In this document: positions 1,950-49,472 of the stretch, piece by piece | Numbering within the stretch: position 1 is the stretch's first letter | How the letters are laid out: each line of letters starts with the position of its first letter | Origin: Candidatus Saccharimonadota bacterium | GTDB lineage: Bacteria > Patescibacteriota > Saccharimonadia > Saccharimonadales > SLHW01 | Assembly: GCA_050486305.1 (NCBI GenBank) | Contig: JBJHDA010000001.1 | Coordinates: 435,071-499,070 of the forward strand | Direction: 5' to 3' | Length of the DNA: 64,000 nt | The notes under the pieces: generated by a model | Told to the model about the DNA's origin: nothing | Seen by the model: the letters and a program-made list of their open reading frames with translations, nothing else | Database searches by the model: none | Program-made: the position numbers and the translations under genes

Positions 1950-2036
1950 TGTATTTTTCCTTCTTACCCTTTCGTTTTTTATCTATATCTTATTGTATAT
2001 AGCGTAGTTTTATAAATCAATACGCTATATGTTGTG

Positions 2037-2603: not shown

Positions 2604-2667
2604 GAACCCTCCTTTTTTGTCTCTCTAAAATGACGTCTTGGGCCGTAGTATAGCGCATTTAACGGGC

Positions 2668-3114: not shown

Positions 3115-3147
3115 AGTAGTGCAGTATACCAGTCGTCAGCCGGCTTT

Positions 3148-4920: not shown

Positions 4921-4985
4921 GCCATTTAAAACCCTACCTTAAGAAACGTGTTTCCCCTAATTCACTCTTACGTCACTCCGCTCGG

Positions 4986-7502
4986 CTATAGCCGTACGGC
5001 ATCCAGCTCCGCAGCTGCTGCATCGGCAATAGTATCCAAGATTTGGCCTAACTCTGGGCTGGCCATTGTTTTCCTGTCCGACCATGCCGTAATACGGAGT
5101 GCAATATGCTTGCTTGATGCATCTCGCTCCGACTGGTATATGTCAAGCGGACTAATCGTATAGCGCAGGTGATCCACCTTTGCTAAAACGTTATCCGCAA
5201 CCGAATAAACATCCTGATACGTGATGCCGCCTGAAACCTTTAGAGAAATATCCTGTTGTATCTTAGGATACTTCGACAAAGGCTTGTAGCGATTTATTCG
5301 CGGAGCCAGCCTCAAGGCATCAATATCTACTTCAAATACGGCGGTCGATGCAGGCAATTTTAATGCCTTGCTAACAGCCCGCTTCGCCTCTCCCACTACA
5401 CCGACTAGCTTATCGCCAATCATAATGGCTCCGGACCGGTTTGTGGCAAACGGGGCAATCATTTGCTTTTCTGCAAGACTGTCGCCAGTTAAATCATCAG
5501 TTAAAGGAACAATATCGTACGTAATGCCAAGCCGGCTGAATAGGTAATCTGCATAGGCGCGTGCCTGATAGAATGCCGAGCCGGTGCCAATCTGCTGCCA
5601 TGTCTTTTCGTCTGCGGAATACACGAAGGCTAACCGGTTGTGCTCTGCCGGTACGGCAGGTTCATCATCGCTCATTACTGACGACACGTGGGATTTTCCA
5701 ATTTCAAACAGCGCGAGCTCGCCATAACCTGCCTTGATATTGGCATGTACTTTCTCTAATAAGCTAGGGCTTAGGCTCAGCCGATAGTACTGCAGGTCAG
5801 GACTTAGCGCATTTGATAAGCAAAATGCTTTTGATGTGTCCTGTGTAGCCTTTTCAAGGAGGCCTCCGTGAACAAAACTATACGTCAGCGCCTCATTCGA
5901 GCCAGCTGCCGCTAATATATTGCGTATAGAATCACAGAAATCGAGCTGTGCGTTGCGCTCAACAGGAGCTAAGCTCCGTGTGGGCAGCTCTTTCGGCAGT
6001 GTATCAAAGCCCATAAGCCGGCCGACCTCTTCGACGATATCCTCAGGTATCGCGATGTCAGTGCGCCAAAACGGCGGCTGTACCACCAACGCATCAGCTT
6101 CAGGCCGAACGATAAACTCGACGGCTTCGAGGTGATTTTGTATATCGTTGGCTGATGTGTGTATACCCAACCTATCGGATACAAACTGGGGCGCAACGGT
6201 AATACTTGGCTGTGGCTGGAGTTCATCCACCTCATCTACGATGTTGCTAGCTACGGTGGCGCCAGAGACATATTCCAGCATAGCGATTGCTTCGCCGATA
6301 ACCCGGTCATTCTGATGTGGTGATTGCCCCTTATTGAATCGTGTGACCGCGTCAGTAAATAACCCAAGCCCCATGCTCGTACGACGTATCGCGTACATAT
6401 CAAAGTTCGCGCACTCTAGAACGATCCGTTTCGTGTTCTCGTCAACTTCCGTATCAATTCCGCCCATAACGCCGCCGATTCCGACTGGAGTATCGTGTGA
6501 CGTAATTAAGATTGTCGAATCATCTTCAAAAGCCAGCTCTTTGCCATCGAGCAGCGTAAGCCTGTCACCTTTTTTGGAGTATCTCGTTTCAAGCTGCAAG
6601 TCTTTTTTGTTGGTGACTTTTTGTAATTTATCAGCATCATACGCATGTAGCGGCTGACCAGTCAGTGCCATTAAGTAGTTGGTGGCGTCAACGACATTGT
6701 TTATTGGCCGAATACCGACTCTCGCTAAATACGCCTGAACCATAAGCGGGCTTTGCTTCACCGTAATTGAATCAAGCAATACGGCCATAAACCGCGGCAC
6801 AACGCCTTGGATCTCGTTTCGTACGGTTAATTTAGTTTTCGTTTTTTCAAGCGAAGCGATAGCAAGACGCTGGCGATACCATTCCGGTGACGCAAACTGC
6901 AACCCCTGTATGCCCGCAATCTCCCTGGCAACCCCAAGAATGCCGAAACAATCAGGACGATGCGTAAACATCTTGTTTTCTATATCAATGACGGTGTCGT
7001 TCAGGTCATATACTTCGGCAAAATCGGCCCCAGGCTGAGCCTCGATATCCACCGTTACAATACCGCCATGATCGTCCCCAATCGCCAATTCCTGAGCGCT
7101 TGCTAGCATACCATTGCTAACTTCACCGCGGATTTCACGTGCTTCAAGCACAAACGGCTCCGAGTCAAAGCTTTTTGGCACAGTTGAGCCTGGGGGCAGC
7201 CAGGCTGCCAACATGCCCTCTGTAACATTTGGTGCTCCACAGACAACTTGCACATGGCCGGAGTCGTTCCGCTCCACACCATTTATCTTTCCTCCATCGT
7301 CAATCAAGCAGACCTTGAGCTTATCAGCGTTCGGATGGCTCTCGGCAGAGACGACCCTGACGACAACTATACCCCTGTACCGGGCTGATAAGTCGACAAC
7401 TTCCTCTACCGCCCCCAATTGTTCACCAATTTTGCGGATTATGTCTGCGTCAGAGGTTGTAATATCGGTAAACTGCCTTACCCAATTTAGACTTACTTTC
7501 AT
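4986..7502 (-). CDS. pheT: Phenylalanine--tRNA ligase beta subunit
   Basis: 838 aa. N-terminal tRNA-binding domain (HPNADKLKVC), B3/4 and B5 regions, C-terminal anticodon-binding-like domain. Overlaps pheS by 4 nt. Confidence 0.92.
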   Translation of the reverse strand: MKVSLNWVRQFTDITTSDADIIRKIGEQLGAVEEVVDLSARYRGIVVVRVVSAESHPNADKLKVCLIDDGGKINGVERNDSGHVQVVCGAPNVTEGMLAAWLPPGSTVPKSFDSEPFVLEAREIRGEVSNGMLASAQELAIGDDHGGIVTVDIEAQPGADFAEVYDLNDTVIDIENKMFTHRPDCFGILGVAREIAGIQGLQFASPEWYRQRLAIASLEKTKTKLTVRNEIQGVVPRFMAVLLDSITVKQSPLMVQAYLARVGIRPINNVVDATNYLMALTGQPLHAYDADKLQKVTNKKDLQLETRYSKKGDRLTLLDGKELAFEDDSTILITSHDTPVGIGGVMGGIDTEVDENTKRIVLECANFDMYAIRRTSMGLGLFTDAVTRFNKGQSPHQNDRVIGEAIAMLEYVSGATVASNIVDEVDELQPQPSITVAPQFVSDRLGIHTSANDIQNHLEAVEFIVRPEADALVVQPPFWRTDIAIPEDIVEEVGRLMGFDTLPKELPTRSLAPVERNAQLDFCDSIRNILAAAGSNEALTYSFVHGGLLEKATQDTSKAFCLSNALSPDLQYYRLSLSPSLLEKVHANIKAGYGELALFEIGKSHVSSVMSDDEPAVPAEHNRLAFVYSADEKTWQQIGTGSAFYQARAYADYLFSRLGITYDIVPLTDDLTGDSLAEKQMIAPFATNRSGAIMIGDKLVGVVGEAKRAVSKALKLPASTAVFEVDIDALRLAPRINRYKPLSKYPKIQQDISLKVSGGITYQDVYSVADNVLAKVDHLRYTISPLDIYQSERDASSKHIALRITAWSDRKTMASPELGQILDTIADAAAAELDAVRL

Positions 7503-8524
7503 GATGTAAACTGCCTTAAAAAATCTAGTTTTGCGGACTCAAAATGCCGTATATCCTCGATGTTGTTTTTCATCATAACCAGCCGCTCAATGCCACCGCC
7601 CCACGCAAAACCGGTATACGTCTCTGGATCAATATCCGCATGACGAAGTACGTTCGGGTGGATCATGCCACAGCCCAAGAGCTCCAGCCACTTCTGCTCC
7701 TCCGAATCATCCTTCCTTAATATCTCTGGCCGCTCAATCGCCAGCTCAAAGCTCGGTTCAGTAAACGGAAAGTAAAACGGCTGTATTTTTGCCTTTAGCT
7801 CCTCGCCAAAGTATTCACTTAAAAATGTCTGCAGTGTCGCAACCAGGTTACCGGCGTGAATCCCCTTACCTACAACAACTCCCTCCAGCTGGTAAAACGT
7901 ATGCTCGTGCGTTGCGTCAAGATCCTCGTTCCTAAAAACCCGCCCAGGTATCACGACTCGAATATCCTCGCCCTGCTCAAGCGAAGATTTGTACTGTTTT
8001 AATACCCTATTTTGCATTGTGCTGGTGTGTGCAGGCGCGATGAAGCCTTCTTTTGTCATAAACGTGTCGTAATCATCGCGCGCTGGGTGATCATCCGGAA
8101 AGTTCAAGCTTTCGAACATATGATAATCATCATCAATTTGCCGGGACTCTACTGCGTTAAATCCCATGCGATAAAAAATGTCGAGTATCGCACTAATCTC
8201 TGTCGTTAAGGGGTGTTTGCTGCCGACAGTCGCGGGCAATACATGTGGCTGCTTTTCTCTCGGGGTGTTCACGTCAAACGGCGCAGTCACATCGATGGGT
8301 GGCAATTCTTCTGCTGCTTCCTCCGCCGACGCGGCAGCCTGGAGCTCATTTTTAAGCTCATTTACTCTGCGTCCAAAATCTGCCCGCTCACCTTCAGGTA
8401 GTGTCGGGATTTGCGAATAGAGTGCCCGAAGCTCTGTCGAGCGGAGCACCTGGCTGATAGGTTCACCCGCTTTGAGCCGCTTTTTCAGCACATTTCTAGC
8501 ATCAGTAATAGAATCCTTGCTCAT
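7499..8524 (-). CDS. pheS: Phenylalanine--tRNA ligase alpha subunit
   Basis: Class II aaRS motifs (FRNEDLDATHEHTFYQLEG, GFAWGGGIERLVM) and an N-terminal coiled-coil. Confidence 0.92.
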   Translation of the reverse strand: MSKDSITDARNVLKKRLKAGEPISQVLRSTELRALYSQIPTLPEGERADFGRRVNELKNELQAAASAEEAAEELPPIDVTAPFDVNTPREKQPHVLPATVGSKHPLTTEISAILDIFYRMGFNAVESRQIDDDYHMFESLNFPDDHPARDDYDTFMTKEGFIAPAHTSTMQNRVLKQYKSSLEQGEDIRVVIPGRVFRNEDLDATHEHTFYQLEGVVVGKGIHAGNLVATLQTFLSEYFGEELKAKIQPFYFPFTEPSFELAIERPEILRKDDSEEQKWLELLGCGMIHPNVLRHADIDPETYTGFAWGGGIERLVMMKNNIEDIRHFESAKLDFLRQFTS

Positions 8525-11196: not shown

Positions 11197-14100
11197 TTAC
11201 CAATAAAATGGCCTGTTCTGTTCTGCCGTATCAAACCACCGGCCATGCCGCATGAGCTGTTGCTGACGCGGCGGAGTTCCGAGTTCAGGTACATATGTAT
11301 AGTCATCTAACAACGAACCGTCCGCCTTGACAACCCGGAAGCAGTAGTTGCCACCAAGATCCGAGTTGTCATACATTGAGAAGTTGAACATAGCCGTAGC
11401 CCCTCTTGAGGTTTCGTTCACTAATTGAAAGTTATTACTTTTTACATAAACCTGGTTGACGGTACCACGTTCGTTGCTGGGATCGTTTTCACTGGGTGCG
11501 GCAGGACTATTGTTGGAAGTTTCGGAATCGCTATAGAAAGTTATATTGCCGCCGCCTTCCTGGAACTCATAATACACTCTTATGCCTATGTGGCTTACGC
11601 TAATAGTAGTATCATCGAATGAATATGCGGTAAACAACGCTCCAAGCCCAGCATTATTTATGTCCGCCGGCTCCCAGCTCTGTCCCCATAGGTCGTTTTC
11701 GTCTCCAACAATTAAAGTATCGCCCTCCATTCTGCTACCTGCTGTGTCTGACAGGAGAGTGCCATCCCTGACAAGATGACCAGCAGGCATAATTACGGCA
11801 CTATTAGTAACCGTATGGCTAATGTGAGCCTCAATACCTTTAATCGTGGCCTCGTTCGATATAGCAAAGCCGAAATCACGCACGATAAGACTTTCTGTCC
11901 CCTCAGTTGACAATAAACTTGCTTCCGCAGAATCAGGTGAAGTAGTCAGTGCATTAGATATACTAGACCAGGGAACCGTACCAAAACCATCTGGGTCGGT
12001 CTCTGCGACAGAACCTGACGCAACTCCAGTATCCGCTTGACCCCCTTCACCACCTTGGACAAGTAAATCCTGATAGTTCTGTCCAGAGAAGTCAATGCTA
12101 CAAACATCACCGAGGCGAGGAGCGTACTGGAGCTTGAAATCCCCGGCAGTTGCATCTTTATCGTCGACATCTATTAGCATACGTAAGCTCACAGGCTGGT
12201 TCGGCTCATCAAGCGTAGCCGTTTGGTTCTGAGCCGCAATCGGGTTTTTGGCTCCTCCAGGGTCGTGATAATAAACATTCATTGCGATATGATCAACACT
12301 GGCTGTCATAGTTGTAGCCGGATCCATAACCAAAAATACCGACAAAGCAAAGCCAAAATCACTCGAGTTGATGTCGTCAGCCGTCCATGATTCACCCCAT
12401 AAGTCATCGTCCCCTCCGTACACAGCATTGCCAGGGCTATCTGACCACCCTCCGCCGCCGCCAGCGTAATTATCACCTATGGTATCTTCATCCTTTACTA
12501 AATATGCCCTAGACTCATCAATATAGCCTGAACCGGAGCCTAGGTTAAAATACCTCGACACTTCTACTTCTATACCTAAAATTTCAGCTCCATCAGGAAT
12601 ATTAAAGTTAAAGTCTGTCGCCATCAGATAATTCGTCAACACGCTGGTCTGGGATGCGCCTCCGTTCTGAGCAGCAGCATCTGCGGTCTCACCATCATCA
12701 TGTATGGCATTTTCTGGATTAGCCCAGTTAAGGAATCCGACTGAGTCTTCATTAACAACGCTGTTTGAATGCACGTAGTCATCAACCCCATCTACACCTT
12801 CTACGTTATCGAACCACCGGAAATCAGACTGCGTAAATGTTGGCGGAGGAATGCGTAATTCGGGGATAACAGAGTATGTATCCAGCTCACTCCCGTCTGC
12901 ATTTACGATACGGAAGCAATACGTCGCCTCCGCCGGAGCATCGTTATCCACTAGCGCAAAATCCCATATGCCGTAGTCCCCGTTTGGAATGGTGTTTGTG
13001 TTAGTAAAGTTATTGCTCTCCACATAACTCTGCATCACGGCGTTGCCCGAGCCTGGGTCAGGGTCGTCAGAGCTCGGAACAATACTCGAACCATCCGGGA
13101 TTTCAGAATTATCGTAAAAAGTTAGTCTATCAGAAATAGAATAGGTTATGCCTATCTCTACATAATGAATCTGACTGGAGGAGTCCTCTGCATATACTGT
13201 TGGACTGAAAAAGTCCTTGATACTCTGCCACGTTCTATCTAGTATGGTGCTTGACTGACATACCGGCACACAAGGGTCCCCTCCAGAAGAGTGTGTATGA
13301 TTAGCGCGAATCATCACTCCAAACGTTTCGCTGTTAATATCTCCTGGATCGAGTGTCGTGTTCCACATATCAGACTCACCACCGACAGTAGCAGTGCTTG
13401 GGGTTCCGGAGTTGGGCAATTCAAGAGATTTCAATGTCGAGCCACTTATTGGTGAGCCGTCTTGAGCCAAACGTATGGTGTGAGTATTCACTGAAGTTTC
13501 ACTTGATTCAAAGTCAATGATGGCCTGGGCTCGACCATTAACCCTTACGGTGATGCCCTCGATTTCCGCGTTTTGCGGTATAGAAAAGTTGAAATCTTCA
13601 GCAAAAATATCACTTCGCTCCCCAGAGTCAGACAGCGTAACGCTAGCATGGTCAGAGGTAGCTGTAATGTTCATCGGCGAACTCCAGGTAGTGGTAGATG
13701 GCGACACTGGCTCGGAATAAGCATCTGCAGGCATAACATAATCTGAGGTGCCATCGAATGGATCAATGACGTCCGTATATTCCTCTCCACCAGAAAAGTC
13801 TGCGGTACAAACAGCATCCGGCCCAAGCTCGGCGTATTGGAGCTTGAAGTTACCCGATTCAGCCGGCAAATCGCCTTGGTCAGCCGAAACCGTCGCTCGC
13901 AACCGAAACGGCGTACCTTCGGTCAGCGCCGTGGCGGGTTGATCCTGTGCGCCAAGCGAATCATTAACAGCAGCACCAAATTGATACACACTAACCCTCG
14001 GGTTAGTATAGCCGGTAATTCCGATCTGTTGCTTATCATCCTGAGCAAAGGCGGTACTGCTCGCCCCGCCCGGCAAGTCACCCGGGTCCGACAGTTTGGT

Positions 14101-15954
14101 AAATGTATCGGTAGTGCTATCTACGGAATAAATAGTAAGGTAAGGGCTTTCATCGTGAGCAACCGACATGTAGTTGCCGTCCGGCGAAAAGGCAACCCCT
14201 CGGCCATCCCCAGTTGGTAAATCACTTGGATCCGGCAGTTTGGTAAATGTATCGGTCGTGCTATCTACGGAATAAATAGTAAGGTAAGGGCTTTCATCGT
14301 GAGCAACCGACATGTAGTTGCCGTCCGGCGAAAAGGCAACCCCTCGGCCATCCCCAGTTGGTAAATCACTTGGATCCGGCAAATTTGTAAAAGTATCCTC
14401 GCTCGAATCCACTTCCTGTACAGTCACGAAAGGGCTGACTTCATGAGCAACCGCGTGATACTTGCCATCCGGCGAAAAAGCAGCACCATTAGCCCACCCC
14501 TCAACGGCATCGACACTCCCTGGCGCTACTCTGACGAGCAGATTATCTGCCTCGAAAACTGCTACAAGTGAACTCTGCTGTACGGCAGAAACATAATGGC
14601 TGTCAGCAGAAAACGCTACACCATACGGATTTGATGTGGGCGGATTACTTGGATCAGTAGTTCTCGTAAACGTATCTGTTTCCGTATCAATCTCGAATGT
14701 TACTAAGCGAGGACTACTAGTATATCCAAGCGCAAGGTACTGTCCGTTCGGGCTAAAGGCAACACTCAGTCCGGCACCACAGCCCGTCGGAGCATTGATA
14801 GGATCAGGGAGCTTAACGTATGAGCTAGTTGTGGTATCAAATTTATAGATGCTTAGAAATGGACCGCAGCCCGCTTCATGGGCAATAGCCATATAGTCCC
14901 CCTCCGGACTGAATGCAATCTGCCGACCGCCACCTCCAGGCTCTATATCAACGTCATCAAGTTTAGCCAATTTTTGAGACTCATTCTCAAACCAGCGATA
15001 ACTGCTCTGCTCAGTTTCAACGAGTGAGGTATAGGTTACTTCGGTGCTCAATGCCGCAACGCGGACGTCATCGCGCTGGTTGGTGGGGTTGCCGCCCCCT
15101 TGCACGATACGTGTTAAGCGTACTTGGGCATCGTCTAGCTGGGCCTGGCTCCACGAGCCGTTGAACGTCGCACTGAAGACTCCCCAGGAATTAAATGACG
15201 GTGTCACCCGCGTAGCGCCCTGCAATGAGCCGCCGATGCGCAGGTCAATGTCTATGTCGTCAAGCGTACCACCATTAGCGTTGGTAGCACTCTGCGCCAG
15301 GATATATACGGTAATACTGGTTGCCTCATCAACATTGGCAACATTCGTTAACCCGAACTCAACCGATACCGTGCCATCGCTAGAGCCAGTCGGCCCAGTA
15401 CCAATGTGCGTACTGGTAGTTGGCGACCCGTTTACATCCTCATTTATATATGTATAGCGGTCGGACGAACAAGTACCACCATTACATTGTGACCATTCGG
15501 TTGTAATGTCTTGGTTCGGCAGGGTAACGGCAGTTGCGGCCTGAACACCAAGCGCAATAAACGGTACGAACGCCACCGCCAACAACAGGCCAGCCAGTGC
15601 AGGAAAGAAATTCTTTCGCACAGATCGCCTATAATCAGCACGCCTTGCGTGTCTGGCCACCCAAGAAAAAGGAGCGATACCGTTCTGTTTAATAACACTA
15701 ATAAAGCGCTTGATAAGTGAAGACTTAGGCTTATCAATAGCCAGCCTCTGCTCTCCACGCGGCAGAACAGGTCGATGCTGTTCGTTTATGTTGATCGAGG
15801 TACGGCTCTCGCTGCGATTAACTGCTCCAATGCGCCGTGAGGAGCGCTCGTTGGATACCCATGAGGACGCCGATTGCCTTGAGTGTCGAACAGCCGGGCG
15901 AAAATCACGGCTATCTGAAGCTTTCATCTGTACGCCTCTTTTGCGAACCGACAT
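11197..15954 (-). CDS. Giant (1585 aa) membrane-anchored surface protein with a 7-blade beta-propeller-like region and three repeated C-terminal super-modules
   Basis: Basic N-terminal region followed by one TM helix (FFPALAGLLLAVAFVPFIALGV). Seven (A/V)FSP(D/E/N)G-type blades. Three repeats of a unit containing FKLQYA..C..DFSG, FNF(S/N)IP..AEI.GI.V and YCFR(I/V)V(N/K)ADGS..D.Y..(I/V)PEL followed by (Y/F/G)RWF(E/D). Exact start is uncertain (M1 or M10). Confidence 0.8.
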   Translation of the reverse strand: MSVRKRGVQMKASDSRDFRPAVRHSRQSASSWVSNERSSRRIGAVNRSESRTSININEQHRPVLPRGEQRLAIDKPKSSLIKRFISVIKQNGIAPFSWVARHARRADYRRSVRKNFFPALAGLLLAVAFVPFIALGVQAATAVTLPNQDITTEWSQCNGGTCSSDRYTYINEDVNGSPTTSTHIGTGPTGSSDGTVSVEFGLTNVANVDEATSITVYILAQSATNANGGTLDDIDIDLRIGGSLQGATRVTPSFNSWGVFSATFNGSWSQAQLDDAQVRLTRIVQGGGNPTNQRDDVRVAALSTEVTYTSLVETEQSSYRWFENESQKLAKLDDVDIEPGGGGRQIAFSPEGDYMAIAHEAGCGPFLSIYKFDTTTSSYVKLPDPINAPTGCGAGLSVAFSPNGQYLALGYTSSPRLVTFEIDTETDTFTRTTDPSNPPTSNPYGVAFSADSHYVSAVQQSSLVAVFEADNLLVRVAPGSVDAVEGWANGAAFSPDGKYHAVAHEVSPFVTVQEVDSSEDTFTNLPDPSDLPTGDGRGVAFSPDGNYMSVAHDESPYLTIYSVDSTTDTFTKLPDPSDLPTGDGRGVAFSPDGNYMSVAHDESPYLTIYSVDSTTDTFTKLSDPGDLPGGASSTAFAQDDKQQIGITGYTNPRVSVYQFGAAVNDSLGAQDQPATALTEGTPFRLRATVSADQGDLPAESGNFKLQYAELGPDAVCTADFSGGEEYTDVIDPFDGTSDYVMPADAYSEPVSPSTTTWSSPMNITATSDHASVTLSDSGERSDIFAEDFNFSIPQNAEIEGITVRVNGRAQAIIDFESSETSVNTHTIRLAQDGSPISGSTLKSLELPNSGTPSTATVGGESDMWNTTLDPGDINSETFGVMIRANHTHSSGGDPCVPVCQSSTILDRTWQSIKDFFSPTVYAEDSSSQIHYVEIGITYSISDRLTFYDNSEIPDGSSIVPSSDDPDPGSGNAVMQSYVESNNFTNTNTIPNGDYGIWDFALVDNDAPAEATYCFRIVNADGSELDTYSVIPELRIPPPTFTQSDFRWFDNVEGVDGVDDYVHSNSVVNEDSVGFLNWANPENAIHDDGETADAAAQNGGASQTSVLTNYLMATDFNFNIPDGAEILGIEVEVSRYFNLGSGSGYIDESRAYLVKDEDTIGDNYAGGGGGWSDSPGNAVYGGDDDLWGESWTADDINSSDFGFALSVFLVMDPATTMTASVDHIAMNVYYHDPGGAKNPIAAQNQTATLDEPNQPVSLRMLIDVDDKDATAGDFKLQYAPRLGDVCSIDFSGQNYQDLLVQGGEGGQADTGVASGSVAETDPDGFGTVPWSSISNALTTSPDSAEASLLSTEGTESLIVRDFGFAISNEATIKGIEAHISHTVTNSAVIMPAGHLVRDGTLLSDTAGSRMEGDTLIVGDENDLWGQSWEPADINNAGLGALFTAYSFDDTTISVSHIGIRVYYEFQEGGGNITFYSDSETSNNSPAAPSENDPSNERGTVNQVYVKSNNFQLVNETSRGATAMFNFSMYDNSDLGGNYCFRVVKADGSLLDDYTYVPELGTPPRQQQLMRHGRWFDTAEQNRPFYW
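14092..14380. repeat. Near-perfect 144-bp tandem duplication inside the giant gene (two identical 48-aa propeller blades)
   Basis: Unit beginning cagtttggtaaatgtatcggt at 14092 repeats at 14236. I see one mismatch (gtagtgc vs gtcgtgc). It encodes GVAFSPDGNYMSVAHDESPYLTIYSVDSTTDTFTKLPDPSDLPTGDGR twice. Confidence 0.9.
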
Positions 15955-19672: not shown

Positions 19673-20566
19673 TTACTGGGCTGCCTGTCGAACAAGCCTA
19701 TCGACTAGCTCAGGCATACTGATCCCGGCGGTAAGTGCGGCCTTTGGAAACAAGCTCTGCTCGGTAAAGCCAGGTAGCGTGTTGAGCTCTAGCGCAAACA
19801 GCTCGTCATTTTTGATCATGAAATCTACCCTGGATAAATGGCGCACCTGCAAAGCATTATGAATATTCACCGCTATGGACTGTGCTGCCTCCTGCAGCTT
19901 CGCATCAATGTTTGCTGGCGGACACAGCTCCTGAGTTTTACCGTTATATTTGTTTTCGTAATCAAACTCTCCAGACTCAGGCGGGATAATTTCTATCACC
20001 GGAAGGGTCTGCCCGCCTAAGACCGCAACAGTTATTTCGTCTCCATCAATCAGCTTTTCAAGCAGCATCTTTTCGTCATGTAAGAATATAGCATCGAGAT
20101 CAAGCTGCGTTTCTGTTGGGCTGCGGACTATGTGGGTATTAATGCTCGACCCGCCAGTAACAGGCTTAAGAACATAGGGCTTTGTCAGCATCGGATCATT
20201 CTCAATCGACTGGCGTGTCACAACTCGCCACTGCGGCGTTTTTATTCCAAGCCGAACAAGCTCTTGCTTAAATAAGTCCTTATCAAAACACAGACGAGAC
20301 ACATCCGCCGTCGCACCGACGTACTTCATTCCTAGCTTGTCTAAGACTTCCTGAATCGAACCGTCTTCACCGCCAGCTCCATGTAACACCGGAAAAACGA
20401 CATCCACATTTTCCCAATACTTACCAATTGCATCTGTGTCATCCTTCGTGTCTAGCGAAATAACGTCGTGCCCAGCCTGCGTTAGCATCTGGGCTACAAA
20501 CGCAGCGGAGCGGAGTGAAACTTCCCGTTCGGCTGAGTTGCCGCCTTTCAATACTAGTATTTTCAT
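19673..20566 (-). CDS. ddl: D-alanine--D-alanine ligase
   Basis: MKILVLKGGNSAEREVSLRSA N-terminus, ATP-grasp core, and C-terminal LELNTLPGFT. Confidence 0.88.
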   Translation of the reverse strand: MKILVLKGGNSAEREVSLRSAAFVAQMLTQAGHDVISLDTKDDTDAIGKYWENVDVVFPVLHGAGGEDGSIQEVLDKLGMKYVGATADVSRLCFDKDLFKQELVRLGIKTPQWRVVTRQSIENDPMLTKPYVLKPVTGGSSINTHIVRSPTETQLDLDAIFLHDEKMLLEKLIDGDEITVAVLGGQTLPVIEIIPPESGEFDYENKYNGKTQELCPPANIDAKLQEAAQSIAVNIHNALQVRHLSRVDFMIKNDELFALELNTLPGFTEQSLFPKAALTAGISMPELVDRLVRQAAQ

Positions 20567-20625: not shown

Positions 20626-21732
20626 TTATACGATTTTTTCCCATGGAAGGTCAGGCTTGCCAAAATGCCCATAAGCAGAGGTTCCTTTGTATATTGGGCG
20701 ACGCAAGTTAAGCCCGTCAACGATGCCCTTTACTGATGTCTCAAGGAGTGAATCAGCAAACGCTTCAAGCTCTGCTTGCTCAACTTTTGACGTCCCCTGG
20801 GCGTCAATTGTCTTCATAAGCGGATTCGGCTGACCAATTACATAGGCCAAGCCGACTTCACATCGATCCGCCAGTCCTTTCGCCACAATGTTTTTTGCGA
20901 TATACCGTGCTGCATATGCGCCTGATCGATCAACTTTGCTCGGATCTTTCCCACTAAAGGCACCGCCGCCGACTCGGGCGTATCCGCCGTAGGTATCCAC
21001 AACGATCTTTCTGCCTGTCAAGCCGGCGTCAGATTCCGGGCCGGGTATATGCCATACGCCGGTACCGTTAATTACGATGTCCTCGACTTCCGGCAACGAG
21101 AATCCGTACCTGTCTAACACTGGCGTAACGATGCCTGTAATAGCATCTTTTTGAACCTGCTCGGGTGTCGTAGTCTCATCATGTGCAACGGCCAAAACCA
21201 GCTTTTCCACCCCGATTGGTTTGTCGCCCTCATAACGGACTGTTACCTGTGCCTTCCCGTCTGGCCGTAGCCAAGCAAGTTCACCGGATTCGCGAGCCTC
21301 ATCAATTTGCCTAGTGAGGGCATGTGCCAACGTTATTGGCAGCGGCATCAGCGTTTCTGTTTCCCGGCAAGCAAATCCAAACATCATGCCTTGGTCGCCC
21401 GCCCCGTCTTTGTCAACGCCGACAGCAATTTCAGGTGACTGTTGATGTATGTAGTTATGGAGCGTAGATTTGTCAGAAAAGCCCCACTTTGGGTTAGTAT
21501 AGCCGAGCTTGCGTATCGTATCTCGCGCGATGGTTTCGTAGTCTAGCGTTGCATCAGATTTTATTTCTCCGAGCAAGACGATTCTATCCGCCCCGACAAC
21601 AGCTTCAATCCCGGTGCGCGAGTTTGGGTCGTGCTTGATTGCCTCGTCAACAATTGCATCGCTGATTGCATCGCAAATTTTATCAGGATGCCCAGCGCAA
21701 ACGCTCTCACTTGTAAATAATGTGCTACTCAC
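20626..21732 (-). CDS. metK: S-adenosylmethionine synthase
   Basis: GHPDKICDAISDAIVD, GAGDQGMMFGFA and GGGAFSGKDPSKVDRSGAY. GTG start preceded by GGAGGG. Confidence 0.93.
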   Translation of the reverse strand: MSSTLFTSESVCAGHPDKICDAISDAIVDEAIKHDPNSRTGIEAVVGADRIVLLGEIKSDATLDYETIARDTIRKLGYTNPKWGFSDKSTLHNYIHQQSPEIAVGVDKDGAGDQGMMFGFACRETETLMPLPITLAHALTRQIDEARESGELAWLRPDGKAQVTVRYEGDKPIGVEKLVLAVAHDETTTPEQVQKDAITGIVTPVLDRYGFSLPEVEDIVINGTGVWHIPGPESDAGLTGRKIVVDTYGGYARVGGGAFSGKDPSKVDRSGAYAARYIAKNIVAKGLADRCEVGLAYVIGQPNPLMKTIDAQGTSKVEQAELEAFADSLLETSVKGIVDGLNLRRPIYKGTSAYGHFGKPDLPWEKIV

Positions 21733-21903
21733 TTAAATGCCCTCCATCTCAAAACTAGTTTTTTGTATTACCGATGCGCCCCTACTGGCCTGCACCTCTG
21801 CTCCAGCTGAAGCTATCTCTCCTATTATTGCGACGACTGCCACATCATCGCGTACACTTCTTTCGCATAAATCTGCGGGCAACTCTAGTTGTACTTCTCT
21901 CAT

Positions 21904-21941
21904 AAAAAATATCCTTTCTGGCAGGTAGCCGGAAAGGATAT
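21904..21941 (-). terminator. Rho-independent terminator in the metK leader (expression platform)
   Basis: On the minus strand, ATATCCTTTC-(13-nt loop)-GAAAGGATAT is followed by TTTTTT. The 5-prime arm can alternatively pair with the upstream GGAAAGATAT (antiterminator-like). Confidence 0.65.
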
Positions 21942-22055
21942 CTAAGAAGCAAAATATCTTTCCCGGTTTACAGCCGGGCTTGGATGGAGCACCTTTTCTG
22001 CTGTTAGCAGCTAGGTTGCCGGTAGGTCTGAAAGCCAAGTCTCTCGCTACACTCT
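21942..22055 (-). promoter_or_regulatory. SAM-I-clan-like riboswitch aptamer candidate upstream of metK
   Basis: Minus-strand read: GAGAGACUUGGCUUUCAGACCUACCGGCAACC, a hairpin (CUGCU-AAC-AGCAG), AAGGUGCUCCAUCC, then a hairpin (CCCGG-CUGUAAA-CCGGG). The GGCAACC and GGUGC(N)AUCC junctions match SAM-I/SAM-IV core junctions. I could not identify P1 or P2 convincingly. Confidence 0.45.
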
Positions 22056-22113
22056 TTATATCTTTAAATTGTTAACGTTTAGTACTATACGGCACCCATC
22101 GAAAACACGCAAC

Positions 22114-22491
22114 CTAGGCGCTTTCAGGAAATCGCGCGCAATCCAATAAGTTGCTGCCAAGATTGGCTATTCTCGAAGAATCTGCAGGATAAAACCCACG
22201 CTCTTGCTTGTTATGAACTGTGACTGTGCCATCAGGGTCTGCGCGAAGCCACTCGTTATCTATATGAAAAAAGATTGGTGGGTCAGATTCGTCTTCGTCG
22301 ACAGGAGCAATAGTGCCAACCCGCAACTCATGTACTGTCCCTTCAATTACAAGCGGAACAGTGACAACTGCCCCAGTTGCATCTGGCGACTGCGCCTCTA
22401 CAGTTTGGCGGATCTGAACCAATTGATCATAGGCAGTTGGCTGCTGTGTGTGCTCACTTTCGGGTCCAATTTCAAAACTCATAATAAACAC
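22114..22491 (-). CDS. Hypothetical protein
   Basis: 125-aa ORF with no recognisable motif. Confidence 0.5.
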   Translation of the reverse strand: MFIMSFEIGPESEHTQQPTAYDQLVQIRQTVEAQSPDATGAVVTVPLVIEGTVHELRVGTIAPVDEDESDPPIFFHIDNEWLRADPDGTVTVHNKQERGFYPADSSRIANLGSNLLDCARFPESA

Positions 22492-22621
22492 CTTTTCATT
22501 TTAAATCCGTGTACTCTACATATTATTGTACAGAGCAAGCAAATTGTTTACAATTCAGTATCCCTGGAATAAGCCTCATTAATACGTTATAATCACCACG
22601 TCTTTTAATTTTCCTATACAG

Positions 22622-22695
22622 TGGGATGTAGCCAAGCGGTAAGGCAACGGGTTCTGGTCCCGTGATCGGGGGTTCGAATCCCTCCATCCCAGCCA
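22622..22695 (+). tRNA. tRNA-Gln (anticodon CUG), CCA encoded
   Basis: Manual cloverleaf: acceptor TGGGATG/CATCCCA, short D-stem GCC/GGC, anticodon stem ACGGG/CCCGT with loop TTCTGGT, T-arm GGGGG-TTCGAAT-CCCTC, discriminator G, CCA. A hairpin plus T-run follows. Confidence 0.9.
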
Positions 22696-22850
22696 ATATA
22701 AAAACATCGGCAAACGTCGGTGTTTTTATATTGTTGGGATATAGGCGACCGAGAACCACGCGAGTGAGCAAAGCGAACGTGGGTTCGGTGAAGCGAAAGC
22801 TCACGCAGGAGCTAGCTCCGAGTAAGCTTGAGCAGAAGAGGCTTGCCGAT

Positions 22851-22868
22851 ATCCCTCCATCCCAGCCA
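22851..22868 (+). repeat. Copy 2 of the tRNA-Gln 3-prime end (ATCCCTCCATCCCAGCCA), att-like direct repeat
   Basis: 18/18 identical to 22678-22695. Followed by its own hairpin plus T-run (acaccac-cttg-tgtggtgt-ttttt). Confidence 0.85.
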
Positions 22869-23016
22869 TGAAATGACACCACCTTGTGTGGTGTTTTTTC
22901 ATGGCTCTGAGAGACTTCTAACCCCCGCAGAATGAGCGCAAGCGAATGTGGGGTTCGGGGCTTGAACCTCACGCGCAGGTGCTCGCATCGAGCATGAGGC
23001 GAAAAGCCACTATGTC

Positions 23017-23034
23017 ATCCCACCATCCCAGCCA
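23017..23034 (+). repeat. Copy 3 of the tRNA-Gln 3-prime end (ATCCCACCATCCCAGCCA)
   Basis: 17/18 match. The preceding ~110 bp is recognisably homologous to the segment preceding copy 2. Confidence 0.8.
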
Positions 23035-23181
23035 CGAACTATTCGCTTCGCTCGAGTTCATGGCAGCACCATTGGAATAATGAATATCGGAACGGAGAAG
23101 CACATAATTTAATTTTCTAACGGCAATCAATTGCTCTAATCAGTATCGACTGGTATATTTTCATTAAGCAAGCCAGGTGTT

Positions 23182-23499
23182 ATGGAAAACTATCCGCCCC
23201 AGAACGAAACCCATAGAATGCGCTCATCTGAAGTAGATGCAGCTAGAGAAAAACTGCAGATTGAACATGCAGCACTCACCCCTGAACAGCAGCAGAAATG
23301 CGAACTATATGTACGCAAACATGGACAGCCTATTAATGGAACTATAATCGATAACCCAGACAGGTCTGGGCTGAAGTTTGGATCTGATACGGCGCCCTTT
23401 TACGATAAGGGTACATTTGGATTGCCGGCTGATTTATTTGCCGAAGAAGCAGCCCATGCGATGATTAGGCTCGAACAAATGCTTGGAAACCCTGAGTAG
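23182..23499 (+). CDS. Hypothetical protein (inside the segment between att-like copies 3 and 4)
   Basis: 105-aa ORF with no recognisable motif. Confidence 0.45.
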   Translation: MENYPPQNETHRMRSSEVDAAREKLQIEHAALTPEQQQKCELYVRKHGQPINGTIIDNPDRSGLKFGSDTAPFYDKGTFGLPADLFAEEAAHAMIRLEQMLGNPE

Positions 23500-23569
23500 T
23501 GCTACAGTGCCGCAACAATATCACATCAGCACGTCACTTTAGCCTGTAGAGCGCAGCATGCACGAGATC

Positions 23570-23587
23570 ATCCCTCCATCCCAGCTA
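23570..23587 (+). repeat. Copy 4 of the tRNA-Gln 3-prime end (ATCCCTCCATCCCAGCTA)
   Basis: 17/18 match, 553 bp after copy 3. Confidence 0.8.
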
Positions 23588-23666
23588 ATACAATAGCGTG
23601 GCATTTTCCACTGCAATAAATACCCTGTCATATACCATTTAGTGATTTACGGGGGTTTTTACGTTT

Positions 23667-24329
23667 ATGAGATCAGTGGTGCTGTCAACTGTGCTGGCAA
23701 TCGAAAATATTAAGTTTGAAGTTTTTCTCGTCTATATCCTCGCACTCATCGCAATTCTTTTGCAGGTCGTCTCGTTGCATGCTGCAGATAGCTCAAGTTC
23801 CAGCCTAGCCCGGCCAGCGAGTATACAAAACGGCCAACCGTTAATGGCAGCAGCAGAGGAAGAGCCCGCCCCAGAGGTTAACCAAGCTTCAGCCACAGTG
23901 CCAGAAGAGCCTGAGCAAGCAGAAATCACTAAAAAAGTTTGGCCGATGAACGGCAGAGTTACTGTTGAGTTCGGCGTGCCTCATCGGCCATGGCAAAACA
24001 GACACACTGGAATCGACATTATTAGCGACAATCGCTCCGGCGCGGCCTCAATTACTCCTTTTACAGACGGAACTGTTTCGGAAATTATCCGTTCTGGCCG
24101 TGGCCTTGGAAACCACGTGATTGTCGACCACGGAGAGGGCATTTCTTCCGTTTATGCACATTTATCTAGAATTAACGTGCGGATAGGCCAAGACGTAAAA
24201 CCCGGCGATACACTTGGATATGAAGGGAGCTCCGGAGCGACTACGGGTCGGCACCTGCACTTTGAAGTGCGGGTAAACGGCGTGCCAAAAAACCCACGAA
24301 ACTTTATATTTGGGAACCCCAACGACTAG
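23667..24329 (+). CDS. M23-family peptidoglycan metalloendopeptidase
   Basis: HTGIDI, and SSGATTGRHLHFEV (HxH). N-terminal membrane/signal segment. Confidence 0.85.
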   Translation: MRSVVLSTVLAIENIKFEVFLVYILALIAILLQVVSLHAADSSSSSLARPASIQNGQPLMAAAEEEPAPEVNQASATVPEEPEQAEITKKVWPMNGRVTVEFGVPHRPWQNRHTGIDIISDNRSGAASITPFTDGTVSEIIRSGRGLGNHVIVDHGEGISSVYAHLSRINVRIGQDVKPGDTLGYEGSSGATTGRHLHFEVRVNGVPKNPRNFIFGNPND

Positions 24330-35899: not shown

Positions 35900-36093
35900 A
35901 GTGTTTCACCCTTTTTGTTGAGTCTGGGAGTAGCTCAAAAACAGCGGGAACTTTACTCACCTAGCATGTTTTTATGTTCACAAGCAAACTCTTCCTGCTG
36001 TAAAACAACACTCAGCCAAACATCAGGTAAATAGAGTTGTGTTGTCATTATGGTTTTGCTTACTTGGCAAAAGTAGTATTAGATAGAATATAT

Positions 36094-37569
36094 ATGAGTC
36101 AAAACCCAGAAATACCTCACTCCTTATACCCTGTGGCGTTCGGAAACGAAGAAGAGACCGGTATGCTGATCGACCACGGTGAAGGGTTTGATGAGCCGTA
36201 CGGTCTCGTGCAAGGCATCGAGTACTACGTACCAGAAAATCTCCGTGGCCATAAAAGCTTCCTTACGAACGGGGCAAAGATTTATGCTGGCGGTACAGGT
36301 GATGAAACCGAAGGGCTGACGAACCTTGAGCGCGCCACCGCGGAGTGCTCGACGCTAGATCAGCTCGTCGCTCGTATCCGCGCGAACGAGAAACTACTTA
36401 TTGACGTATCCAGCACCTACGCCAAAAAATACGCTGATACGCACGATACACCGGTGCATGTACGCATTCAGCGGCGTGTCGTCGACGGCCACGGTAGCCG
36501 CAAAGGCTGCCACGACAACTTCTCTGTCAATGGTAAAGACATTAACGATCCGAGCGAACGCACCAGCTTCCGTCTGCACCCGATGGTGCTAGGGCATATC
36601 GTTACGAGGTCGTTCGTCAGCGGTGCCGGGCATTTTACAGATAACGGTACGCATTACGGTCAAAAAATCGGCGGTCTAGTACAAACCGAAGGTCGTAGAT
36701 ACGGCGGTACGGTATATCGGATTACATCAGGCGGTGCCAACGAACGGCTAGAAGTCCGCTCGAACGATATCAACATCTCCGACTGGGCTATCCGGAGTCG
36801 TGTGGGCAGCACCGCCCTCGCGCTTGCGGTTGCAGGTACTGAGCTGGCAGATGGTTTTTCTGCGCACGCCAGTCACAACCAATACTTCGCCATGGCAAAT
36901 TATTTCAACGAGCTCAACCTACACCGTGACGGCAGCATCGAAGCGTCCGGTGCACAGCACGAAGCACTCGATTTCCAGATGCGACTCGCCGAGGTGGCGC
37001 TGTTCGAGCTCGAGCATATCGCTGGACCGTTGCCAGATGATCTGCGCACCGCCGCCGAAGAGCTTTACTTCTTTTGCCGCGATTACAAACAAGTCCTCGA
37101 TCAGGACGCCAGCGTTCGGTTGTTGGCCGATCGCGCTGATTGGGCTGCCAAGGCAGCGTATGTGCTAGACCGTATCGATGCCGACCAAAATAACGGTGTG
37201 CTCCGCAGCACTCACGATATCCAGGCCCAGGCAGATGATCTGCGCTACGATCATATCGCGCTGCGAGCAGTACCAGGCCTTAAGTCGCCTCGGGTGACGC
37301 ACGGCTATGGTTATAAACACCGTGATGCAGGTAATCTCAAGCACTCCGCATCGGAAAAAGATGTCGCTCGCGCTTACTGGCAGGCTCCGGAAACGACACG
37401 TGCCCATGAGCGCGCCAGGATATTAAAGGAAGACAAGGTCACCCATTGTGACTGGCACACCGTGAACCACATCCAGTCAGACGGCACGTACCGCTACACA
37501 ACCTTGCCGAATGCCGCCGGTACGCCAGTCGACATGCAAAAAGTCGTTGAATTCTCCAGCAAGATCTAG
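36094..37569 (+). CDS. Pup-ligase/deamidase-family protein (PafA/Dop-like), orphan
   Basis: FGNEEETGM (cf. GIETEYG), FLTNGAKIYAGG...ERATAEC (cf. NGARLY.D.GSHPEYATPEC), GCHDNFSV (cf. GCHENY), and C-terminal DWAAKAAYVL (cf. DWV.K). Start moved to the ATG at 36094 (MSQNPEI). Confidence 0.7.
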   Translation: MSQNPEIPHSLYPVAFGNEEETGMLIDHGEGFDEPYGLVQGIEYYVPENLRGHKSFLTNGAKIYAGGTGDETEGLTNLERATAECSTLDQLVARIRANEKLLIDVSSTYAKKYADTHDTPVHVRIQRRVVDGHGSRKGCHDNFSVNGKDINDPSERTSFRLHPMVLGHIVTRSFVSGAGHFTDNGTHYGQKIGGLVQTEGRRYGGTVYRITSGGANERLEVRSNDINISDWAIRSRVGSTALALAVAGTELADGFSAHASHNQYFAMANYFNELNLHRDGSIEASGAQHEALDFQMRLAEVALFELEHIAGPLPDDLRTAAEELYFFCRDYKQVLDQDASVRLLADRADWAAKAAYVLDRIDADQNNGVLRSTHDIQAQADDLRYDHIALRAVPGLKSPRVTHGYGYKHRDAGNLKHSASEKDVARAYWQAPETTRAHERARILKEDKVTHCDWHTVNHIQSDGTYRYTTLPNAAGTPVDMQKVVEFSSKI

Positions 37570-47885: not shown

Positions 47886-47891
47886 GTTTTT

Positions 47892-49444: not shown

Positions 49445-49472
49445 AGCTTACTCCCGCGCAAAACAGTCTGCG

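Follow-up and report, generated by a model that had tools for sequence, protein, structure and literature searches.

Four direct copies of a tRNA-Gln 3' end in a Saccharibacterial genome: a probable array of stacked attachment-site scars

The 3' end of a tRNA-Gln gene recurs three times downstream of the intact gene in a 64-kb stretch of Saccharibacterial DNA (the window, to which all coordinates refer). We read the locus, with a probability of roughly 0.6, as an attL/attR-type scar array at a tRNA-Gln integration hot spot, in which three successive insertions are now reduced to gene-less or one-gene stubs. The kind of scar is known; here it is unusually miniature and oddly regular. The tail of tRNA-Gln(CTG), ATCCCTCCATCCCAGCCA, is found in four direct copies, all on the + strand, and shuffled sequences are expected to contain 0.00 matches in the same pattern search. 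The features of the locus are as follows.

22114..22482, - strand: 122-aa ORFan of the left flank, with the same gene order in contigs L176 and L177
22588..22593, + strand: TATAAT, a possible -10 box of the tRNA-Gln gene, read directly from the sequence
22622..22695, + strand: intact tRNA-Gln, anticodon CTG (ARAGORN; Rfam tRNA, 63.7 bits)
22678..22695, + strand: tail copy 1, the last 18 nt of tRNA-Gln, 0 mismatches
22694..22733, + strand: terminator T1, a palindromic hairpin with A- and T-tracts; the CA of CCA forms part of its base (inverted repeat; -23.6 kcal/mol, z -7.2)
22734..22850, + strand: unit U2, a non-coding arm of 117 nt with no promoter-like site and no Rfam match
22851..22868, + strand: tail copy 2, 18/18, 0 mismatches
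22864..22906, + strand: terminator T2, a palindrome CCATGAAA...TTTCATGG whose stem includes the AGCCA of the tail (inverted repeat and terminator scan; -27.8 kcal/mol, z -6.4)
22907..23016, + strand: unit U3, 110 nt, paralogous to U2 by alignment
23017..23034, + strand: tail copy 3, 17/18, T>A
23031..23064, + strand: weak hairpin after copy 3 (GCCA.GAACT...AGTTC.TGGC; inverted repeat; -12.1 kcal/mol, z -1.4), probably a decayed terminator
23182..23499, + strand: 105-aa ORFan, ribosome-binding site AGGTG, sole cargo of the third module (23035-23569)
23570..23587, + strand: tail copy 4, 17/18, CCA>CTA
23623..23660, + strand: terminator-like hairpin with a T-run, starting at +36 after copy 4 (folding), a candidate for the ancestral tRNA terminator
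23667..24329, + strand: M23 peptidase gene, the right chromosomal flank of the array (Pfam, 9.4e-26)

Aligned to the Rfam tRNA model, the repeat corresponds exactly to tRNA positions 59-76: it begins with the final 2 nt of the T loop and runs through the 3' strands of the T stem and the acceptor stem to the discriminator and CCA. An earlier note on this DNA had reported the 18-mer at 22678 and its recurrence at 22851 (18/18), 23017 and 23570 (17/18 each), and the pattern search agrees. Mismatches in the tail rise with distance from tRNA-Gln (0, 0, 1, 1) and CCA is lost in copy 4. The T>A change in copy 3 results in CCCAC, which as read from the sequence is complementary to GTGGG in U3, and the flanks of copies 4 and 1 have 6 further bases in common (AATAYAA). 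The primer-binding site of a tRNA-primed retroelement was considered for a repeat of this extent and rejected, as neither a reverse transcriptase nor any other gene accompanies it.

Two short modules follow the tRNA gene at 22696-22868 (173 bp) and 22869-23034 (166 bp), and they are homologous: end to end they are 59% identical, and their local alignment scores z 13 relative to shuffles; the mutual homology that had been noticed in the ~110 bp before copies 2 and 3 is thus confirmed. The third module is unrelated to the first two. Every arm holds a copy of the 5' half of the tRNA T stem, placed 45-90 nt before the tail. In U2, GAACCACG (22753-22760) is inverted relative to CGTGGGTTCGG (22778-22788), a copy of the variable-loop/T-stem 5'/T-loop start of the tRNA, and a 62-nt spacer follows; in U3, AACCCCC (22920-22926) is inverted relative to TGTGGGGTTCGG (22947-22958) and the spacer is 58 nt. 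Additionally, AGCGAA occurs 4 times within 276 bp of the arms (0.32 expected per 320 bp). The inverted half-sites that resemble the T stem, and the GAAGCGAA-type arm motifs, are proposed as putative binding sites for a recombinase or an accessory protein.

The tRNA copy and copy 2 had each been described as followed by a hairpin plus T-run, and the folding scores of T1 and T2 support this; hairpin strength falls with distance from tRNA-Gln (z -7.2, -6.4 and -1.4), and the weakest, at 23031-23064, contains an inverted GAGCGAAGCGAA motif. T1 is similar (z 6.2) to the terminator 3' of tRNA-Gln in contig L015, which derives from another Saccharibacterium, and resembles the one in L178. The T2 hairpin type is also found after tail 4 of L015 (z 9) and after a tRNA-Lys tail in L118, and nowhere else in the 2.0 Mb of compared sequence. 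If every insert has to leave the tRNA gene working, strong terminators of their own after copies 1 and 2 are what one would expect.

A mechanism can be proposed in which the incoming attP would comprise an arm of ~110 nt, a duplicate of the 18-nt tRNA-Gln tail and a terminator. Each insertion would rebuild the tRNA gene from the incoming tail and terminator and shift the older tail and the terminator belonging to it downstream. Copy 4, with its CCA changed to CTA, would then be the original chromosomal 3' end, now unused, and the order of events would run from right to left, with module 23035-23569 arriving first, T2 and U3 next, and T1 and U2 last. The bodies of the elements and any integrase may have been lost, or the modules may never have been autonomous; what is left behind would be inserts of 155, 148 and 535 bp between direct repeats, resembling stubs of cis-mobilizable elements.

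Other genomes provide evidence for integration at this tRNA end. L015 has the same tRNA-Gln/metK arrangement as the window (metK 64% identical) and carries 5 tails, of which tails 3 and 4 enclose a three-gene island encoding an unknown protein, a CGNR regulator and an MFS transporter; the gene for an Arr rifampin ADP-ribosyltransferase follows tail 5. In the strain pair L194/L195, metK and tRNA-Gln are identical over 2221 nt, only 3 nt are common after CCA, and unrelated genes then follow. In the distantly related L093, L182 and L198 no tail repeat accompanies tRNA-Gln, so the flank of the gene does not require the repeats. The layout seen in the window is found again at tRNA-Gln (L178, L202) and at tRNA-Lys (L094, L118), and the T-stem block matches the local tRNA (12 nt exact in L178, 12 nt exact in L094, 8 nt in L118). 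The earlier note mentioned neither this recurrence nor the T-stem copy inside each unit. In the arrays compared, modules with cargo alternate with cargo-free modules.

Viral contigs carry the same tail. The 18-mer or its L015-type variant, followed by the element's own terminator, is present in L002, L004, L006-L008, L207 and L208, and a related ~280-aa tyrosine integrase lies beside the tRNA-Gln fragment in 7/7 viral contigs with enough sequence next to the tail. The 18-mer, which the earlier note suggested seeking as attP in phage sequences, is present in IMG/VR contigs beside integrases, and an attP with an adjacent integrase shows that the tRNA-Gln end is used as an attachment site. These phage sites and the window array share the 18-mer and a terminator of their own. 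They differ in that the phage attP has an unbroken and longer stretch of tRNA homology (31-57 nt, beginning in the variable or D region, as compared with 18 nt), in that the phage integrase gene lies within about 150 bp whereas the window array has none, and in that the phage arms have no similarity to U2 or U3. An origin of the array as the attP of a known phage was rejected, since the 18-mer matches in IMG/VR are longer tRNA-Gln fragments beside integrases and have no unit-like arm; searching IMG/VR with unit and terminator patterns gave chance matches or nothing, and the phage collection gave no match. The viral integrases are small and XerC/D-like, with Pfam matches only to the SAM-like N-terminal and catalytic domains. 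They appear to be devoid of an arm-binding domain, and such enzymes would be expected to use core-type accessory sites.

Several results count against the scar reading. No recombinase domain was found in the 40 window ORFs of at least 165 aa, which extends to the whole 64 kb the earlier statement that no integrase is adjacent; tblastn with a tRNA-Gln-targeting viral integrase found no match in the window, and no recombinase gene lies next to the compared Saccharibacterial tRNA-Gln loci. Searches of IMG/VR, the phage collection and the compared loci yielded no parent element whose arms are homologous. A close relative that could provide an empty or occupied site was sought and none was found, the best metK match being 71% (GTDB representatives) and the best M23 match 54% (JGI metagenomes); the two small flanking ORFs are, like the internal one, ORFans, and the further metK loci P0031 and P0048 have no tRNA-Gln. 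The 105-aa protein has no Pfam or PHROG match and no homologue but itself among 5.8 billion proteins, and none of the cargo ORFs has a phage-family annotation (PHROG). The regularity of the array also argues against scars. Random decay predicts no equality of module sizes within a genome, as is seen here (173/166 bp) and in the two paralogous units of L015 (128 and 128 bp, z 12.9), nor does it predict that arms are alike within a genome (z 13 here, z 12.9 in L015) and not between genomes while terminators are alike between genomes. In a canonical T-loop attR the T-stem 5' half immediately adjoins the T loop; in the arms it stands 45-90 nt away from the tail.

This regularity would be compatible with modules that are not products of decay but discrete, non-autonomous, attP-only mini-elements (tail, terminator and arm, 130-175 bp) or landing pads of a cassette platform, inserted and removed in trans. 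The T-arm-like half-sites of the arm would then be recognition sites for a genome-specific recombinase encoded elsewhere or on a helper, and arms that must match a resident recombinase would be alike within and not between genomes. The equal module sizes, the recurrence of the layout with a T-stem block matching the local tRNA, the alternation of modules with and without cargo, and the small XerC/D-like character of the viral integrases that target the tail all point in the same direction. We nevertheless regard this explanation as unlikely: no recombinase, circular junction or polymorphism is seen for any module, and circles of ~170 bp are poor recombination substrates. The units also occur nowhere else in the sequence compared, as blastn-short searches with every part of the modules, run on the window and ~2 Mb of related loci, returned only the parts themselves and the tRNA tail, a result that also eliminates a dispersed repeat or MITE. 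The module layout is known from about 6 independent lineages, a small number, and L094 and L118 owe their taxonomic assignment to an M23 peptidase match only. It would be a tentative extension, and a doubtful one, to propose that Saccharibacteria harbor a family of gene-less modules at tRNA-Gln and tRNA-Lys, each with an 18-nt tail, a palindromic terminator and a ~110-nt arm with a split T-arm mimic, that are inserted and amplified by a trans-acting recombinase and act as landing pads for small cargo, so that the cassette platform would be built on a tRNA 3' end and not on attI.

The paralogy of U2 and U3, their near-equal length and the similar relationship of the two L015 units would also follow from local tandem duplication of a tRNA-flank module by unequal crossing-over or slippage at the 18-nt tails or palindromic terminators, with later divergence, and slippage is favored by direct repeats and strong palindromes. 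However, the similarity between T1 and T2 is far lower than that between U2 and U3, each terminator resembles its L015 counterpart, and the third module has no relationship to the other two. Duplication accounts neither for gene islands bounded by tails nor for the L194/L195 breakpoint at the tRNA end, and it does not say where the first tail copy came from. Duplication of this sort is quite improbable as the source of the array.

The earlier note had left two readings side by side, stacked remnants of integration and a tandemly amplified small transcript bearing the tRNA tail. The first is supported by the gene islands between the L015 tails, the L194/L195 breakpoint at the tRNA-Gln 3' end and the integrase-bearing viral contigs with the tail; the second gained no support. 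In a broader form it would make the units functional RNA genes or cis-acting RNA elements, acting as mimics or decoys for enzymes of the T-arm/acceptor end, or antisense RNAs on the opposite strand. Each unit is indeed closed by a perfect or near-perfect tRNA 3' end and a terminator, in other lineages the T-stem block agrees with the resident tRNA, and an arm hairpin (GAACC.../...GGTTC) is conserved with 6/20 predicted pairs kept through double changes between U2 and U3, a comparison of two sequences only. U2 also folds somewhat better than shuffles (z -2.4 on the + strand, -1.1 on the - strand). Against this, each unit lies behind a strong terminator and has no promoter-like site on either strand, the folding of U3 does not exceed that of shuffles (z 0.0 on both strands), neither unit shows a significant folding advantage consistently, and unit sequence is not conserved between genomes. 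The covariance-model scan that had been suggested for tRNA-like folds gave no match in the units (Rfam, E up to 10), only the tRNA itself being matched. An origin of the units as decayed full-length copies of tRNA-Gln was rejected, as aligning their 5' parts to that of the tRNA gave no significant similarity (p 0.19, 0.12 and 0.89). A functional RNA is accordingly very unlikely.

An assembly artefact, in which reads of co-occurring strains were mis-joined at the conserved tRNA, is extremely improbable. The contigs L174, L176 and L177, from this or related species, do break inside or at tRNA-Gln, and 22659-22783 lies outside both Logan contigs compared. However, Logan contig L173, an independent assembly, reproduces 22784-23666 at 100% identity with copies 2-4 included, so these copies are not peculiar to one assembler, and the earlier note's check for the repeats in an independent assembly comes out in their favor. 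The 18-nt repeat is shorter than assembly k-mers, the inter-copy units are diverged paralogues and not collapsed or duplicated reads, and equivalent arrays are present in the unrelated assemblies L015 and, from four samples, L178-L181.

The scar reading agrees in part with described systems. The Dehalococcoides ssrA islands are associated with integrases that target the T loop/3' end, with identity starting inside the T loop (PMC3146451), tRNA fragments serve as attR sites (PMC9897764), and tandem tDNA arrays have been reported (PMC4383910), although arrays with at least 3 fragments are rare even among full islands (4/3919 Islander calls; PMC4383910). Islander arrays and the ssrA islands resemble the locus in having an intact gene followed by several direct 3'-end copies with identity from the T loop, a conserved sequence just 5' of each repeat, some intervals that contain no integration module, and strain-specific cargo (PMC3146451, PMC4383910). 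Their intervals measure kilobases, whereas those of the locus measure 155-535 bp and have no tyrosine or serine integrase nearby. Islander calls require an intact tRNA with a direct fragment of the same gene, which tRNA-Gln and its three 18-nt 3' fragments on the same strand provide, and an integrase inside the interval; the intervals here are ORF-free or contain only the 105-aa ORFan.

Decayed elements that have no integrase, keep attL and attR and undergo tandem accretion have also been described (PMC5704250). The CIMEs and the ICESt1-related accretion of Streptococcus thermophilus are like the locus in that attL and attR are kept, integration and transfer genes are lost, and elements stack in tandem at a resident att site (PMC5704250). 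At the locus, 18-nt direct repeats flank all 3 modules and none contains a recombinase, which corresponds to attL/attR with neither integration nor transfer genes. Described CIMEs are kilobase derivatives of identifiable ICEs or IMEs, in contrast to the locus, which has no known parent and has two gene-less modules. The earlier opinion that the units are far too small for intact elements is correct.

Integron cassette arrays and Xer-dependent IMEX at dif are analogies only, since they also consist of small one-directional units with the same end site, some of them gene-less, with the recombinase outside the units and inverted repeats of variable spacing in the site-bearing segment. Unlike these systems, the locus has no IntI, attI, Pc or attC consensus, no tyrosine recombinase is found in the window, and the site is a tRNA 3' end and not dif; nothing at the locus indicates single-strand folding or Xer involvement.

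How the episymbiotic, genome-reduced Saccharibacteria gain new genes is very poorly understood. At the locus and in its relatives, foreign DNA has entered repeatedly at the 3' end of tRNA-Gln and apparently also at that of tRNA-Lys; in one relative this DNA includes a rifampin-resistance gene and, separately, a transporter island, and in a strain pair it is alternative cargo. As scars only, the modules would allow past integrations to be traced in genomes that are difficult to compare by other means; as discrete units acted on in trans, they would be smaller than any integrative element described so far and would form a simple natural landing-pad system. The source organism is an uncultured soil Saccharibacterium.

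Unit homology between genomes is confined to the tails, with the exception of the W1 and L178 units, which have the short stretch CGT.GGTTCGGTG.AAGC.AA in common (z 4.5). Near tRNA-Gln, a formal promoter scan returned only a weaker site at 22527-22554. In L093 a homologue of the M23 peptidase gene lies ~970 bp after the repeat-free tRNA-Gln, and on the left side L176 and L177 have the gene order of the window, with the 122/125-aa gene, the leader and metK.

The single tRNA in the window is a tRNA-Gln(CTG) at 22622-22695 (ARAGORN and Rfam), and its final 18 nt, ATCCCTCCATCCCAGCCA, are found four times in direct orientation when shuffled sequences give an expectation of 0.00 matches. In the Rfam alignment this repeat (the tail, with copies numbered from the tRNA downstream) coincides exactly with tRNA positions 59-76, covering two final T-loop bases, the 3' strands of the T stem and the acceptor stem, the discriminator and CCA. 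Retroviral primer-binding sites complement the same 18-nt span, and as no reverse transcriptase is present the resemblance is treated as a coincidence of the T-loop boundary. In tail 4 the CCA is gone and replaced by CTA, and the flanks of copies 4 and 1 have six further bases in common. The features of the array and its surroundings are as follows:

20626-21732, minus strand: metK, left of the array
21951-22064, minus strand: SAM riboswitch (S-box) in the metK leader, 46.1 bits (gathering score 44.4)
left flank of the array: 122-aa ORFan
22678-22695, plus strand: tail 1, inside the tRNA-Gln
22694-22733, plus strand: T1, long palindromic terminator after copy 1, folding at -23.6 kcal/mol (z -7.2)
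22851, same strand as tail 1: tail 2, 18/18
22864-22906, plus strand: T2, long palindromic terminator after copy 2, folding at -27.8 kcal/mol (z -6.4)
23017-23034, same strand as tail 1: tail 3, 17/18
23182-23499, plus strand: 105-aa ORF with a good ribosome-binding site
23570, same strand as tail 1: tail 4, 17/18
79 nt downstream of tail 4: M23 peptidase gene

The array is arranged in modules of terminator, unit and tail. The first comprises the tRNA (tail 1), T1, the non-coding unit U2 (117 nt) and tail 2; the second T2, the unit U3 (110 nt) and tail 3; and the third a decayed hairpin, 118 nt, the 105-aa ORF, 70 nt and tail 4. Measured to the end of the next copy, the intervals that follow copies 1 and 2 (173 and 166 bp) are paralogous, with 59% identity from end to end and z 13 in a local alignment. 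The stems of T1 and T2 both take in the last tail bases, a weak hairpin of the same design follows copy 3 (z -1.4) and a terminator-like hairpin lies 36 nt downstream of copy 4. Each unit also holds a copy of the tRNA variable-loop/T-stem 5'/T-loop start (CGTGGGTTCGG at 22778 in U2 and TGTGGGGTTCGG at 22947 in U3; CGGGGGTTCGA in the tRNA), which is separated from the tail by 58-62 nt and preceded 17-20 nt upstream by an inverted copy (GAACCACG at 22753 in U2, AACCCCC at 22920 in U3). Counting both strands, 276 bp of these arms contain the motif AGCGAA four times, versus 0.32 expected per 320 bp. The copy 3 mismatch (CCCTC to CCCAC, 23017-23034) makes a perfect complement to GTGGG of the U3 T-stem block (22947-22958), and in U2 the same GTGGG stands opposite an unchanged CCCTC; the pairing could be compensatory or due to chance.

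An assembly artefact is unlikely because an independent Logan contig (L173) reproduces window 22784-23666 identically and equivalent arrays are present in unrelated assemblies. In its favor, Logan contigs are interrupted between 22658 and 22784, and three independent assemblies of this or related lineages (L174, L176, L177) end inside or at the 3' end of tRNA-Gln. These ends suggest graph branching at the site and fit either strain heterogeneity there or a tRNA common to co-occurring species. The repeat coordinates, paralogous intervals, terminators and identical contig confirm the earlier note, which had described four direct tRNA-Gln 3' ends, homologous ~170-bp units and hairpin terminators after the tRNA copy and copy 2.

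The earlier note had proposed either stacked integration remnants or a small transcript. The second proposal, in which the units are RNA genes, was tested as a rival and is disfavored: no promoter-like site precedes U2 or U3 on either strand, the check for tRNA-like folds gave no Rfam match in the units at E up to 10, and the fold z is -2.4 for U2 and 0.0 for U3. On the other side, 6 of the 20 pairs in a U2/U3 consensus hairpin are kept through double changes, a count drawn from two sequences only. Decayed tRNA copies were rejected as well, the 5' parts of the units having no significant alignment to the tRNA 5' part, as was a dispersed repeat, the modules occurring nowhere else in the window and about 2 Mb of loci.

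The proposal of integration is supported by gene islands in a relative, a strain-level breakpoint and viral integrases. A Saccharibacteria MAG contig (L015, metK 64% identical) shares the divergent metK/tRNA-Gln arrangement and carries five tails, in this order:

tRNA, T1-like terminator, 92-nt unit, tail 2
terminator, canonical contiguous T-arm fragment (tail 3)
three-gene island: 337-aa protein of unknown function, CGNR zinc-finger regulator, MFS transporter
tail 4, T2-like terminator, second unit, tail 5
Arr rifampin ADP-ribosyltransferase gene

The Arr gene (1956-2381, plus strand) bounds this array and the MFS transporter and CGNR regulator (2617-5356) are enclosed by it, so resistance-type cargo sits at the hot spot. 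[quoted passage not shown] One (L194, 1-2269) encodes two unknown proteins (135 and 310 aa) after the tRNA and the other (L195, 1-1488) a DinB_2-family protein. No tail repeat follows tRNA-Gln in L093, L182 and L198-L200, which argues that the repeats are insertions and do not belong to the gene. One gene separates the tRNA from the M23 homologue in L093. In L182 a ParE-toxin/RHH-antitoxin pair (7143-7635) directly follows tRNA-Gln; a terminator is absent, as is any tail repeat within 7.7 kb.

A search of phage contigs for the 18-mer as attP was fruitful. The window-type tail is carried by viral contigs L002, L004 and L006-L008 and the L015-type tail by L207 and L208, with contiguous tRNA homology of 31-57 nt. 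A related tyrosine integrase of ~280 aa (SAM-like N-terminal and catalytic domains) lies beside the tRNA-Gln fragment in all seven viral contigs with enough adjoining sequence; the tRNA-Gln end is thus a real attachment site for such enzymes. The window itself has no adjoining integrase, as previously noted: no recombinase domain was found in its 40 ORFs of at least 165 aa, and tblastn with a tRNA-Gln-targeting viral integrase gave no match in the window.

Three things are observed: the tRNA 3' end is directly repeated, its tails and terminators showing progressive decay; relatives have foreign or strain-specific genes between such tails or beyond them; and there are integrases that use the tRNA-Gln tail. 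We infer that three site-specific integrations at tRNA-Gln probably occurred in succession, each bringing a new tail and terminator that displaced the old one. The ORFan module would have arrived first, then T2 with U3, then T1 with U2, and the element bodies and recombinase gene would have been lost subsequently. This putative history follows the path described in the literature, from integration through decay to a cis-mobilizable element to accretion (PMC5704250). It also matches the ssrA islands that lie in tandem in Dehalococcoides, where the repeats are 20 bp long, insertion is in the T loop, every repeat is preceded by a conserved motif and several intervals lack integration modules (PMC3146451). 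Islander calls seldom include arrays of three or more (4/3919).

The small-module layout recurs in other contigs. In L178-L181 (metK 76%; four samples) a different tRNA-Gln with T arm CGTAGGTTCGAATCCTAC is followed by a T1-like terminator, GAACCTACGAT, 22 nt, ATCGTAGGTTCGG, 39 nt and a degenerate tail; the T-stem block copies 12 nt of their own tRNA exactly, and a perfect 11-nt inverted repeat flanks it. In L202, GGGTTCGAA is followed by 52 nt and a degenerate tail. The same design is found at tRNA-Lys genes in L094 (cargo, TGGCCCTCCA and a palindromic terminator, CTCGACAC/AGGGTGTCGAGG, 88 nt, TCAAGTCCCT) and L118 (cargo, tail, CCATGAAAAA...TTTTTCATGG, GTGGGTTC, 58 nt, CCCCACTGAGC), both retrieved via the M23 homologue, the sole source of their taxonomy. 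Within 2.0 Mb of sequence, the CCATGAAA...TTTCATGG hairpin is confined to window 22866 and L118, and L015 has a one-base variant. Terminators are alike across genomes (window versus L015, z 6.2 for T1 and 9 for T2), whereas unit bodies resemble one another only inside the same genome (z 13 and 12.9).

Four regularities are unaccounted for by repeated integration: modules of one genome are equal in size, arms are similar within genomes but terminators between genomes, the T-stem block stands 45-90 nt from the tail when the canonical T-loop attR (L015 tail 3, viral attPs) is contiguous, and the block has an inverted copy. They keep open a much less likely explanation, in which the modules would be discrete units that a genome-specific recombinase recognizes in trans, or the arms would serve some purpose. 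Att scars made of duplicated tRNA 3' ends are already established, as are tandem arrays and remnants lacking an integrase. New are the miniature gene-less modules, the recurring layout that includes a split T-arm mimic, and the occurrence in Saccharibacteria at two tRNA species (the tRNA-Lys contigs being placed via the M23 homologue).

The window comes from an uncultured Saccharibacterium. Among GTDB species representatives its metK is best matched by Saccharibacteria MAGs (60-71% identity), and matches in a large protein collection reach 80%, several named Saccharimonadales. The 105-aa ORF and the 122-aa flank gene have only self-matches among 5.8 billion proteins, so these searches brought up no close relative with which to compare occupied and empty sites. 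Given the SAM riboswitch in the metK leader, the mechanical ORF at 21733-22038 is probably not a gene, and neither are the short ones annotated in L174, L176 and L177 between metK and the 122-aa ORF. Farther along, window 43741-54283 holds a defence/addiction cluster in which the hsd genes are interleaved with others, including short ORFs of unknown function (one faintly matching HEPN):

43741-46845: hsdR, type I restriction-modification
46842-47885: PIN_12 protein
47892-49055: hsdS
51178-52806: hsdM
52740-53498: zeta toxin
53630-54283: RadC

Pupylation-type ligases are associated mainly with Actinobacteria; a Pup-ligase family protein is encoded in this Saccharibacterium (36037-37569, plus strand) and another adjoins metK in a different relative (L203/L204; L203 8143-9705). 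A protein with bacterial archaeo-eukaryotic release factor-like domains (baeRF families 7, 3 and 6) is encoded at 61103-62266 (minus strand), and a 1585-aa ORF with beta-propeller/lactonase-type repeats (11197-15954, minus strand) is possibly a large surface protein. Two D-Ala-D-Ala-ligase-family genes (19673-20566 and 56282-57340, both minus strand) lie within 64 kb of this reduced genome.
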